A stretch of DNA of 64,000 nt from an uncultured bacterium (GCA_916049765.1 CAJZIX010000003.1:12520-76519), one strand, 5' to 3'; shown: positions 1,628 to 59,691, counted from the stretch's first letter. The notes: generated by a model not told the origin, from the sequence alone. Numbers and translations: made by a program.

Positions 1628-2326
1628 ATGACACAGGAGAAAACGATCATCATCGATAGTTCACGAAAAAATATCTTAAAAGAAGAATTTGAAAAACCAT
1701 ATTTTTTTAAAATAAAAGAAACTTTAAAAAAAGAGCTCTCCTCGGGACACTCAATCTATCCACAGGGGAAACAGATATTCAACGCTTTTAATTTAACCCC
1801 TTTTGATCAGGTAAAGGTAGTGATTCTCGGACAAGATCCTTATCATGGAACAGGAGAGGCTCATGGACTGAGTTTTTCTGTCCCAGAAGGAATTAGAATT
1901 CCTCCTTCTTTAAGAAATATCTTCAAAGAACTAAAAGCTGATCTCGACATTGATCCTCCTCTCAATTGAAATTTAGAGAAACGAGCTAAACAAGGGATTC
2001 TCCTCCTTAATGCAAGTTTAACGGTAAGAAAGAACAGTCCAAACTCTCATAAAGATATTGGATGGCAAATTTTTACTGATGCGGTCATCAAAACTCTTTC
2101 CGATAAAAAAGAAGGCATCGTTTTCATCCTCCGAGGTGCATTTGCACAACAAAAAGCAAGCCTCATTGATACTGATAAACATTTTATTCTCAAATCAGCA
2201 CATCCCTCACCTTTCTCTGCAGATAGAGGATTTTTCTGAAGTAGACCCTTTAGCCAATGTAATGAAATCCTTGAATGTATCGGAAAGAAACCAATCAACT
2301 GGGATTTAACTAACAACACCATATAA
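1628..2326 (+). CDS. ung: Uracil-DNA glycosylase (family 1)
   Basis: GQDPYHG motif, then ...PPLN(TGA)NLEK(CGA)AKQGILLLN...[12 protein letters not shown](TGA)S. This aligns with E. coli NHGYLESWARQGVLLLN and RGFFGC. Two in-frame TGA at Gly positions, stop TAA 2324-2326. Confidence 0.92.
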
Positions 2327-2385
2327 ATACTAACCATTTTATTATAAATCACTTTAAATATTTATTAATAAACCTACACGTGATA

Positions 2386-3165
2386 ATGCAAAAGAAAAAA
2401 AAACCAGAATTTATACTCGTAATTTCTTGATGAGGAGCAAAGGGAATGTATGCCTGCTGAGTTCTAAAAGCCATCGAGGAAATGGGATTAAAATCATCTA
2501 TCAAAGCTATTTATGGAGTCAGTGCTGGAGCTTTAACAGGAGCTTATTGGCTTAGCGGGTGGAAAGCTGATGAAGTTGTGCAAAACTACCTCAATAGCGA
2601 ACTCTTTAACCTCAAAAATATTGCACTCCCTCCAACTCAAAGTCTCCTAAAACGCTCCGTCGTAGAGAAGCTTTTGAAAAAAGACTTAAAAAAAACCTTC
2701 GAACAGCTAGAAAAACCTCTAATCGTAGGAACAACCGACCTTCGAAAAGGAAAATCGGTCTTTTTCGAATCTGGAGATCTCATAAAACCAGTATTATGAA
2801 GTATGTCAATACCTGGAGTATTTGCCCCTATTGAATATGAAAAGCATTTACTTGTAGACGGAGGGGTTACTGACAACTTCCCCATAGATTATGCTAAGAA
2901 ACAGAACCCCAATACCAAAACAATTGGAATTTTACTTGGGAAGTTTAAAACAAATCAGAAAGTTAAAAACATTCTAGATACTTTAATGGTTTCTTATGAA
3001 ATCCTCTTGAGATGACGTTTAAACGCAACAATTAACAAGGCTGACATTCTTTTCTACAGGAATCTTTCTATGAGTCCCTTTGAAAGTAATGAAAAAAAAC
3101 TGATCCAACTTTTCGATCAAGGATATCATGACGGAATCGCCACTTTTAGCTCTTTGCAAAAATAA
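2386..3165 (+). CDS. Patatin-like phospholipase (paralog 1)
   Basis: MQKKKKPEFILVIS-(TGA)(TGA)-GAKG gives the GGGxKG oxyanion box from two consecutive TGA (2428-2433). GVSAG nucleophile elbow and DGG(V) Asp motif present. Joined through TGA at 2800 and 3016, stop TAA 3163-3165. Confidence 0.88.
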
Positions 3166-3965
3166 TGTTTAACTTCAAATTTCCTTTTTTACAAAAAAAA
3201 GAGGAAAAGGACTTCACTCTCGTAATTTCATGAGGTGGAATGAGAGCTTTTTATGGACTTGGAATTCTAAAAGCCTTAGAGGAACTTGGATATAAAGACA
3301 AAATTGATGCACTTTATGGGGTAAGTGCTTGAGCTTTACTTGTAAGTTATCGATCAGCTGGATATTCAGCTGATGAAATACTAACACGTTTTCTGAAATC
3401 AGATTTTTTGAATTTTTCCAAAAATCTTAATCTTATACCAAAATCTTCTCTCCTTAAAAATACCCTTCTAAAAAAACAAATGGAAAAAGAATTACCTAAG
3501 AATTTTGAAGATCTTAACATTCCAACCTTCATCGGCTGCACTGAAGTAAAAAAAGGAGAAAATCTAATCCTTTCGAGTGGCGAGCTCACCTCTGCCCTAC
3601 TTGGGACAATTGCAATTCCTTGAATTTTCCCAGCAATTGAAAGAAACGATCACCTTTTAATAGATGGAGGAGTTACTGATAATTTTCCTATAGAAGTTGC
3701 AAAAAAAAGCTTTCCTCAAAATAAAATTATTGGAATCTCTCTCAACAAATACCGCTCTAACCCCAAAATTAAAAACCTTTTCGATAATTTAATTGTTTCC
3801 TTTGAAATTATGCTAAGAAAAGACATTCAAGAAAAAGGGAATCTAAGTAATATATTCTTTTGTAGAGGACTTGATACGCCAGTTCTAGAATTTAGGACAA
3901 CAAAACTTAAAAAACTTTTTGAACTCTGATATAAAGATGGGAAAGAAAAACTAAAAAAATTATAG
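3165..3965 (+). CDS. Patatin-like phospholipase (paralog 2)
   Basis: ATG overlaps the upstream TAA (TAATG). FTLVIS(TGA)GGMRAFYG, GVSA(TGA)A, IDGGVTDNFP. Same architecture as the upstream gene. Stop TAG 3963-3965. Confidence 0.85.
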
Positions 3966-3974
3966 CCTTTCTAT

Positions 3975-57522: not shown

Positions 57523-57597
57523 TGGTGCCAAGAGGCAGAATCGAACTGCCGACACAAGGCTTTTCAGGCCTCTGCTCTACCACTGAGCTACCTTGGC
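57523..57597 (-). tRNA. tRNA-Phe (anticodon GAA), CCA encoded
   Basis: GCCAAGG/TCTTGGC acceptor stem (one G-U pair), GAGGC-CTGAAAA-GCCTT anticodon arm, GGCAG-TTCGATT-CTGCC T arm, 3' ACCA. Confidence 0.88.
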
Positions 57598-57703
57598 ACA
57601 AGAAGATAGCGAAATTCTTTATAAGAAATTTCTCCTTAAATGCAAGAGAATTTTCAAAAATAAACAACAAGAAAATCTTAATACTTCCTTTCTAGTAATC
57701 TCC

Positions 57704-58741
57704 TTATCTCAAATATATCGCAACATTTGAAATATGTTCTTCATTAGTAGTCCCATAGTGAATTCCTCCTAGTTGATCATGAAGATAAAAAAGATAATCT
57801 GTTTTTTTAAAATTTAATAAAGCAGAAAAAGTTTCTTCACTTGGAGAGGATATTGGTGTTGGCATTAAGCCTAAAACCTGCCTCGTGTTATAAGGATTTG
57901 TCGAATCAGAAAGATTTGGAACGATATTTTGACGACATTTATCATGCGTAACCTTCAATCCATAACACAAGGTTACATCTGCATCCAGTCTCATCCCTCT
58001 TTCAAGTCTATTGAGAAAAATTCCTGCAATAATAGGTTTATTTTCAGATTTTTTTTCTTCATTTTCTATCACTGAAGCAAGAATCACTACTTGATATGGA
58101 GAAAGATTATATCAGAAAGAAACAATCTTTTCATGATAAGAATCCCATATTTTTTGCTGAAAATTTTTCAGTTGAGCAGTAAGAAGTTGTTCAGAAATAT
58201 CTCAATTCTGATCCAAAAAATAGGTATCAGGATAAAGAAAACCTTCAAGTGATTTTCCTTCAGGCAAAATAGACAAAAAAGAAAAATTTGACTTTAAACG
58301 CTGGATAAGACTCAAATCACTTGCCTTATTTACAAATTCTCCAGCCTGAATTAAACCTTTTTGTGTCAATTCTTGATCAATATCATAAATTGACCACCCC
58401 TCAAGTATCGTCATACGGATAAAAGCCTTCTCTGGACCTTTAGCTAATTGTTCTAACAGTTCTTTTTTTTGATAGCTACCATTCAAAGCATACTTTCCTT
58501 TTTGAAGAGGAGGAATAAGATCCTTATGATTTCTAAGCCAAAGTTTCATCATAAACTTATGATAACCATTAAGATGTGAATAGAACTTAGCTAGCGTATC
58601 TCACTCTTCAATTTCAATTTGAGTATTTTCATCAAAAACCAGAGGAGCATTATACCCAAGACGAAGTGTACACCACACCCCTAAAAGAACAAGAAAAACA
58701 ACAAGAATTCTGATTTTTGATTTTTTTTGCTTTCTAGACAT
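57704..58741 (-). CDS. mltG: Endolytic murein transglycosylase MltG (YceG family)
   Basis: 57704..58087 and 58202..58552 are in one frame. N-terminal TM helix (MSRKQKKSKIRILVVFLVLLGV). ILEGWSIYDI, PDTYF and LASVIENE-type motifs. Confidence 0.82.
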
Positions 58742-58761
58742 AGAACAAAAGGAATAAAAAA

Positions 58762-59691
58762 TTAAAATCGCTTCTTTCTTTTAAAGACAAGGACCGTAAT
58801 CAGAGCCATACTAAACATAAACCCCATAAGAATCACAAAAGCCCAAGGATTTTCCTGCATTGGAAGGACAATATTCATACCATAAATTCCACTAATCATA
58901 GTCATAATTCAGATAATTACTGTCAAAACCGTCAAAATTCAAAGATTAGTATTAGTCATCATATTTGTTAGAGTATTGAAAATATCTCAAATAGAATCAA
59001 TATTTTCATGAATACTTATAATATGTCCCAAAATTTTACTTGTTTTATATTCCAAGTCCTCAAAATAAACATCAAGATCTCCCTCATAAAAGTTAGCAGT
59101 TGCTTTCTGAAGCTCCAACAAAATTTCCTCCTGAGGAGCAATAATAGTCTTGAGTAAAACCGCATTTCTTTTTTTGATTAAAACCTTTTTTAGCAGTTCT
59201 GTATCCACAAAATTTTTATCAAAAACCTGCTTTTCCATCTCCATAAGATCTAGGTTAAATTTATTGAGCCCTAAGATAATCTTATCATACATAACATCAA
59301 TAATCTTATAGAGAATATAATAAGGAGAAATCTTATAATCTTCCGCCTCCTCTCATTCTTCTTTAATTTCTTGTTCATATTCTTGCCTAATCTTCTCTAT
59401 ATTATTAGTTGGATATTTAGTTAAAGTTATGATAAAATCCTTACCTAGAATAATATTCATTTCATTAGAAACATATTTTCAAAGTTTTTCATTATACTTA
59501 GGAAAATGCATAATTAAAAAAATACAATCATCATAGATATCAATCTTATCATGAGCACTAGGCTCCAAAATATCTTGTTCTACCATTTCATGGAGGTTGA
59601 GATTCTTTACAACCTCTTCTAATTCATGATGATTAGGTTTAGATAGATAGATTCGCTTTATTTTTCAAATTTTTAATTCTTTTTTTATCAT
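58762..59691 (-). CDS. corA: CorA-family magnesium/cobalt transporter
   Basis: Track ORF 58987..59292 is extended both ways through TGA. YGMNIVLP is the GMN motif. Two C-terminal TM helices. The end reads FKRKK(CGA)F, fitting the family K-K-W-L/F terminus. Confidence 0.85.

Follow-up and report, generated by a model that had tools for sequence, protein, structure and literature searches.

A predicted reading of CGA, and probably CGG, as tryptophan on top of UGA as glycine in a genomic segment of an uncultured, apparently oral-type Absconditabacteria (SR1) member

Shulgina and Eddy (eLife 2021; PMC8629427) predicted that, besides reading UGA as glycine, the entire Absconditabacteria clade translates CGA and CGG as tryptophan, and a 2026 paper in Nucleic Acids Research repeats this assignment. 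According to the 2021 study, the tRNA(UCG) and tRNA(CCG) of the clade bear tryptophan identity elements (G73, no A20, A/G1:U72), a tRNA-Arg(GCG) serves CGU and CGC, and tRNA(ACG) and TadA are absent, HOT-345 included; the row for HOT-345 gives UGA as Gly, CGA and CGG as Trp, and tRNA counts of ACG 0, GCG 1, UCG 1, CCG 1 and CCA 1. Here we describe a stretch of 64,000 nucleotides from an uncultured bacterium (GCA_916049765.1 CAJZIX010000003.1:12520-76519; hereafter the window, meaning this whole stretch at its full length), for which an earlier note, made by reading the sequence, had proposed that CGA means tryptophan in addition to UGA meaning glycine. The note had cited the 2021 prediction for a single sub-clade; it was right about the reassignment of both codons, the published range of which is the entire clade. 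Since that prediction already covers CGA and CGG for the clade, our finding is a rediscovery.

The window differs in no way in kind from the Absconditabacteria code: it shares with it the same codons and, for CGA and probably for CGG, their new meaning, UGA as glycine, a low GC content, rare CGA and CGG, and AGA as the dominant arginine codon, and what it adds is codon exchange among oral-type SR1 relatives and a few CGA/CGG codons at arginine or variable columns. Its GC content (0.349, or 34.9%) and its CGG frequency (5.6 per 10,000 codons) fit the published ranges of the clade (GC 0.26-0.38, CGA <37 and CGG mostly <7 per 10,000; PMC8629427), CGA stands at the upper edge with 37.7 per 10,000, and the usage of arginine codons is close to that of the oral taxon HOT-345. 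NCBI translation table 25, made for SR1/Gracilibacteria (Campbell 2013 and Rinke 2013, cited in PMC8629427), shares UGA=Gly with the window but keeps CGA and CGG as arginine, by which it mistranslates 85 codons of the window. In Anaerococcus and in the RFN20/Onthovivens Bacilli (PMC8629427; PMC13092985) an arginine codon of the CGN box has also passed to tryptophan, at low GC and with a dedicated tRNA of tryptophan identity; there, however, only CGG is affected and CGA stays arginine via tRNA-Arg(ICG), whereas CGA is the main codon of the window, whose host belongs to the candidate phyla radiation (CPR), is without tRNA(ACG) and TadA according to the literature, and has UGA recoded as well. 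The AGG=Met code of Candidatus Enterosoma-type Bacilli (PMC8629427) is alike in that a sense codon of arginine has changed and that the change was deduced from column statistics and tRNA identity. Both the codon and the amino acid differ, and AGG is the dominant methionine codon there, while CGA and CGG make up about 31% of the tryptophan codons in the window.

From our analysis we consider it very probable that tryptophan is the meaning of CGA, and probably of CGG, in the window. Three independent lines of evidence concur in this, namely the residues of outgroup proteins, codon exchange with close relatives, and the shifts of profile hidden Markov model scores against a matched control. Its sequence relationships assign the window to an uncultured, apparently oral-type bacterium of the Absconditabacteria (candidate division SR1), in line with the earlier placement in that clade or in a relative of it: the closest leucyl-tRNA synthetase (LeuRS) loci (78-96% identity) belong to uncultured metagenome-assembled genomes (MAGs), one of them named 'candidate division SR1 bacterium ... 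ORAL', and the next best matches reach 50% identity at most. Many public metagenome assemblies have contigs, up to 210 kb long, that encode an identical EF-Tu protein, and the sequence collection lists a sugar transferase fragment in 168 of its blocks.

When TGA is read through and translation ends at TAA or TAG only, the window holds 63 open reading frames (ORFs) at a coding density of 92%. Their 19,628 codons, a count that leaves out the gene in 9863-10710 (DUF2238) and hence any CGA or CGG in it, include 74 CGA, 11 CGG, 73 CGT, 21 CGC, 438 AGA, 152 AGG, 192 TGG and 213 in-frame TGA. The block of ribosomal protein and EF-Tu genes (46376..57100, minus strand) serves as an internal control: next to 190 AGA, AGG, CGT and CGC codons it has two CGA, both at tryptophan positions. 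The share of CGA among arginine-like codons is 1% in this block versus 12.7% elsewhere (Fisher p = 7e-8), and the share of CGA and CGG among tryptophan-like codons shows no significant difference between the block and the rest.

For LeuRS (6864..9863, minus strand), 41 usable outgroup loci were available from a scan of a genome collection (Bacteroidota, Clostridia, other CPR phyla, Archaea and others). The gene carries seven CGA (9816-9818, 9504-9506, 9285-9287, 9186-9188, 9126-9128, 7764-7766 and 7515-7517) and one CGG (8067-8069). Sorted by the codon in the window, the outgroup columns are 73% Trp at the seven CGA sites and 74% Trp at the 16 TGG sites, 77% Arg at AGA and 69% Gly at TGA; arginine stays well under 1% in the CGA columns. 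TGG has accordingly kept its tryptophan meaning, and conserved arginines are carried by AGA and AGG, both as had been claimed before. Six of the CGA columns are mostly tryptophan in the outgroups (39/39, 40/40, 32/39, 40/40, 25/39 and 27/40), and Thermus thermophilus LeuRS has W at seven of the eight CGA/CGG sites, all six of these columns included.

Codon exchange with relatives leads to the same picture. Against six SR1 loci with 70-85% protein identity, the CGA codons of the window face exclusively TGG (41 times), CGA (24) and CGG (1), and CGG faces TGG in 6/6 cases; since these six loci resemble each other, the independent unit behind these counts is the site (11 for CGA, one for CGG) and not the locus. 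AGA and AGG of the window face AGA, AGG, AAG and AAA, never CGA or TGG. At five CGA sites of LeuRS and at its CGG site, SR1 relatives have TGG. Taking all relatives together, TGG is exchanged with CGA or CGG at 17 distinct sites and in both directions, the LeuRS motif ERNWIGKS among them, and no exchange of CGA with an arginine codon was seen in conserved proteins. A PBP1-like gene offers an instance between strains about 98.5% identical in protein: its residue 40 (62864-62866) is TGG in the window and CGA in L003, a change of two bases that leaves the residue unaltered only if the code has CGA as tryptophan. The same comparison confirms UGA as glycine, as TGA of the window meets TGA 74, GGA 62, GGT 21 and GGG 19 times in the SR1 relatives. 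Neither of two other described codes matches these data: for UGA as tryptophan (table 4), tryptophan is outside the six commonest residues at the LeuRS TGA columns and TGA swaps with GGN, and for a reassignment of CGG only, of the Firmicutes type, CGA is the main codon at the tryptophan columns.

A profile comparison was made by translating the conserved ORFs with CGA or CGG both ways and comparing their Pfam scores. Reading these codons as Trp instead of Arg adds about 60 bits over 15 Pfam domains and about 11 more for a GT2 glycosyltransferase, about 70 in all. As a matched control, 22 random AGA-to-Trp swaps cost about 60 bits, against a gain of about 46 for 22 CGA/CGG sites of the same proteins. 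The largest single contribution is that of tRNA-synt_1 in LeuRS (+21.8 bits). The Competence domain of a ComEC-like protein (32683..34305, plus strand), which has eight CGA, five of them in the domain, gains 7.7 bits, and tRNA_synthFbeta of the phenylalanyl-tRNA synthetase beta subunit (19393..21903, minus strand), with two CGA and two CGG in the gene and two CGA and one CGG in the domain, gains 7.2, four AGA-to-Trp control swaps costing 14.1. Losses are small: ABC_membrane -2.1, tRNA_NucTran2_2 -1.0 and QueA -0.6 bits.

Each of the ten codons brought forward in the earlier note reads CGA when its stated strand and frame are used, and most of them do lie at tryptophan positions. The single CGA of ribosomal protein L2 (52899..53741, minus strand; CGA at 53094-53096) corresponds to the W of GKAGRSRWLGRRP in the L2 of T. 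thermophilus; six SR1 relatives have TGG at this position, and Ribosomal_L2_C gains 3.8 bits with tryptophan. Ribosomal protein S3 (51519..52193, minus strand) also has one CGA (52134-52136), which stands opposite W, H and W in three PDB chains and is retained as CGA in six SR1 relatives. LeuRS 9504-9506, taken for the W of a YDW motif, is the site of one of the two 40/40 columns. In uracil-DNA glycosylase (UDG; 1619..2326, plus strand) the proposed site 1982-1984 is tryptophan in three of three PDB structures, and so are the two other CGA of the gene, 1664-1666 and 2132-2134; the tryptophan reading brings 4.4 bits, and in the near relative L015 the codon at 2132-2134 is TGG and that at 1664-1666 is CGG.

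The CorA magnesium transporter (58762..59721, minus strand) has both its CGA near its ends: 58768-58770 aligns with the W of Thermotoga maritima FKKKKW, and 59653-59655 enters the Pfam alignment only when it is read as W, the two sites jointly giving +8.3 bits. The PgaC/IcaA-like GT2 glycosyltransferase (26717..27898, plus strand) has seven CGA and two CGG in 392 codons. Both sites proposed there, 27473-27475, which completes the Q-x-x-R-W motif only as tryptophan, and 27455-27457, lie inside an intact ORF, and the tryptophan reading lifts Glyco_trans_2_3 by 11.3, Glyco_transf_21 by 11.4 and Glyco_tranf_2_3 by 5.1 bits. Translation with table 25 alone does put Arg for Trp even in a catalytic motif, as had been warned. 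We also considered the region as a frameshifted pseudogene and rejected it, as an all-frame translation gives an open frame under the SR1 code.

Two of the proposed sites fared less well. The codon 26692-26694 of the ABC exporter (24949..26724, plus strand) falls in a Leu/Ile column that is neither Trp nor Arg and speaks for neither side. For QueA (10710..11906 with a likely start at 10710, plus strand; CGA at 11235-11237, 11454-11456, 11607-11609 and 11886-11888, CGG at 11604-11606) the site 11886-11888, supposed to be aromatic, is Leu in two PDB QueAs and a true TGG in the Absconditabacteria MAG L111; another QueA codon, 11454-11456, is TGG in L008. The wording 'invariant tryptophan positions' was overstated, a minority of CGA and CGG codons lying in variable or hydrophobic columns and two at conserved arginine columns, and the scope of the reassignment, proposed for CGA, probably extends to CGG as well.

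Sequencing or assembly errors were rejected as a source of these codons, the same CGA recurring in independent assemblies from different samples (34/34 cells), and so was RNA editing, which would require two specific base changes per codon and has no support.

A number of observations weigh against the tryptophan meaning. A 2026 preprint calls these arginine reassignments experimentally unverified, and the kinship of the six more distant SR1 relatives limits our codon-exchange evidence to the 11 CGA sites and one CGG site mentioned above. QueA 11235-11237 falls on the conserved arginine of the motif E-R-YQTVY when aligned with two PDB QueAs, and the CGG of the ABC exporter at 25264-25266, like the other codon of that gene not a tryptophan column, is Arg in plant ABCB homologs and accounts for the -2.1 bits in ABC_membrane. 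LeuRS 7515-7517 (KMSKR-CGA-GN) is in a column that varies among the outgroups (L, M, K and S), the columns of several further CGA/CGG sites are likewise variable or else hydrophobic, and near relatives have AGA, CGT, CAA or GAA at four CGA sites of poorly conserved ORFs. For CGG the testable sites are few: among the 11 codons, two are TGG in relatives, one brings a Pfam gain and one a loss. Such codons at non-tryptophan columns are most simply explained as remnants of the former meaning at which tryptophan is tolerated, or as ordinary substitutions. The QueA column itself is His in the Absconditabacteria MAG L111, from which we take it to be unconstrained in the clade.

The remaining objections concern tRNAs. 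No tRNA reading CGN or UGG was found in the window, in about 10 kb past both of its ends (on near-identical contigs) or in eight SR1 relatives, and the tryptophan charging of a tRNA for CGA/CGG in the lineage of the window is something that we infer. The only tRNA genes of the window, by ARAGORN, are Pro(UGG), Ile(GAU) and Phe(GAA) (57336..57597, minus strand), and over the window, six near-identical EF-Tu contigs, the flank contigs and the eight SR1 relatives the program returned only Pro, Ile, Phe, Ser(UGA) and Thr(GGU). A pattern scan of metagenomes for a tryptophan-like tRNA with a UCG anticodon gave 19 tRNAs(UCG), 17 of them without the tryptophan-type combination and most with the A20-type GGATAGAG D-loop that is typical of tRNA-Arg. 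The two others, on L087 and L111, are nearly identical and form a clean cloverleaf with A1:U72, G2:C71, G3:C70, G73 and U20, an acceptor-stem likeness to tRNA-Trp that has to be read with the fact that the scan pattern fixed GGGG at acceptor positions 2-5 and was thereby biased toward it. L111 is a UGA-recoded contig whose MurE is named Candidatus Absconditabacteria by NCBI. As judged from these sequences, the tRNA(UCG) of L087 and L111 appears to reproduce the tRNA evidence published for the clade, in a lineage other than that of the window. Its adjacency to MurE is not conserved, no such tRNA being found near the MurE homologs P0093 and P0064.

A scan of viral contigs with the anticodon-arm pattern ACGGTCTTCGAAACCGT (IMG/VR, L117-L131) returned only ordinary tRNA-Arg genes in phage tRNA arrays. 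These phage arrays hold up to about 25 tRNA genes, an ordinary tRNA-Arg(UCG) among them, and are unrelated to the SR1 code.

On the basis of these data and of the literature, the code of the window would combine UGA as Gly (table 25) with CGA and CGG as Trp, AGA, AGG, CGU and CGC remaining Arg and UGG remaining Trp. Dedicated tRNAs with the anticodons UCG and CCG and with tryptophan identity elements would be charged by tryptophanyl-tRNA synthetase, as PMC8629427 and the one Absconditabacteria tRNA recovered here suggest. The tRNA-Arg(GCG) would be confined to CGU and CGC and the wobble of U34 restricted, according to the literature, and since the clade is reported to be without tRNA-Arg(ACG) and TadA, no inosine tRNA would read CGA. 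Low GC may have made CGA and CGG rare before they were captured.

It would be legitimate to ask whether CGA alone was reassigned, with CGG still arginine or effectively unassigned in this lineage. The small number of CGG codons, the one at an arginine column with its loss of 2.1 bits, the variable CGG column of LeuRS (K, E and W at 23% each in the outgroups) and the '?' that Codetta left for CGG in several SR1 genomes (PMC8629427) all agree with such a restriction. We nevertheless regard it as unlikely, because CGG exchanges with TGG (LeuRS 8067-8069 in six relatives, 4215-4217 in L015, and a TGG of the window that is CGG in L008) and with CGA at two sites, and never with an arginine codon, because a CGG in an Elp3 homolog gives +4.4 bits to Radical_SAM when read as W, and because a U34-containing tRNA(UCG) normally reads both codons and CGG was called Trp in HOT-345. 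At the few sites where it can be tested CGG does as CGA does, in tryptophan columns and in exchange with TGG, and tryptophan is favoured for it.

A second possibility is ambiguous decoding in a transitional lineage, where CGA and CGG would be mostly Trp and partly Arg through competition of a tryptophan-type tRNA(UCG/CCG) with wobble or superwobble of an arginine tRNA. The two CGA/CGG codons at conserved Arg columns (RYQTVY of QueA and the transmembrane domain of the ABC exporter) and the exchanges of CGA with AGA and with CGT at two sites in near relatives would be its natural traces, and Shulgina and Eddy themselves state that only experiments can exclude ambiguous translation (PMC8629427). 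Still, it seems very unlikely to us: the exceptions amount to about two of about 25 evaluable sites, the QueA column accepts His in another Absconditabacteria MAG, conserved proteins lack exchange between CGA and arginine codons, and CGA stands at universally invariant tryptophans of the essential L2, LeuRS and UDG, where frequent arginine would be harmful. A related and only slightly less improbable idea is that the reassignment is incomplete in the oral SR1 lineage, CGA and CGG being mainly tryptophan with residual arginine, and that Elp3 might tune U34 of tRNA(UCG) and tRNA(UCA) to control the ambiguity; residual insertion of arginine, if true, would explain the persistence of these codons at the conserved Arg columns of QueA and the ABC exporter. 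That CGA is still arginine, as in plain table 25, and that the tryptophan columns are lineage-specific Trp-to-Arg replacements or alignment artefacts, has the public table 25 annotation and the two sites at conserved Arg on its side, and is hardly credible in view of LeuRS CGA columns as rich in W as the TGG columns, relatives that exchange CGA only with TGG and CGG, Pfam scores that rise by about 70 bits with W and fall by about 60 in the AGA control, and the depletion of CGA from the arginine-rich ribosomal proteins.

The Elp3 homolog (15546-17381, minus strand) is a full-length bacterial protein with a radical SAM domain and a GNAT-type C-terminus, and it scores 480 bits on NCBIfam TIGR01211 (cutoff 350), a family named 'tRNA uridine(34) ... 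modification enzyme Elp3'. An enzyme that modifies U34 is of interest here, as tRNAs with U34 (UCA for Gly and UCG for Trp) must not misread the neighbouring codons.

Some further features of the window deserve a mention. LeuRS contains a NUDIX hydrolase domain (PF00293, 45.6 bits) at residues ~422-543, where it separates the editing domain from the catalytic core; this insert is apparently variable among SR1 relatives, as the match spans 2490 nt in L012 and L014, 2865 in L010 and L013, 2952 in L007 and 3000 in the window. The DUF2238 gene (~204 aa) lies between LeuRS and QueA in 9863-10710 according to public calls on near-identical contigs (L075-L079). Two tandem genes of patatin-like phospholipases (2380-3165 and 3165-3965, plus strand) have one CGA each, of which one becomes TGG in relatives and the other stays CGA. 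Two ORFs of about 750 aa, 39588-41864 and 42532-44793 (both on the minus strand), contain 11 and 14 in-frame UGA; the former, with much Cys and Gly and a hydrophobic segment at its N-terminus, probably encodes a protein that is secreted or located at the cell surface.

Public gene calls for this lineage (L001-L006, L071-L079) are inconsistent, those with UGA read-through giving full-length proteins and those made with table 11 giving fragments; the penicillin-binding protein gene, for instance, is split into about eight pieces under table 11 in Logan contigs. The database proteins of this organism all carry Arg at CGA and CGG.

The analysis independently confirms, at the level of a single window, a sense-codon reassignment that was among the first to be predicted for bacteria. 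Pipelines that use table 25, 4 or 11 mistranslate SR1 proteins, and all 85 CGA and CGG codons counted here become Arg in place of Trp, at positions that include outgroup-conserved tryptophans of L2, S3, LeuRS and UDG and the Q-x-x-R-W motif of the glycosyltransferase. These errors spread to protein databases, structure prediction, family profiles and the search databases of metaproteomics, and with such mistranslated search databases metaproteomics would miss exactly those peptides that are able to prove the code. As the lineage is present in many public metagenome assemblies, oral metaproteomes would be a realistic source of that proof.

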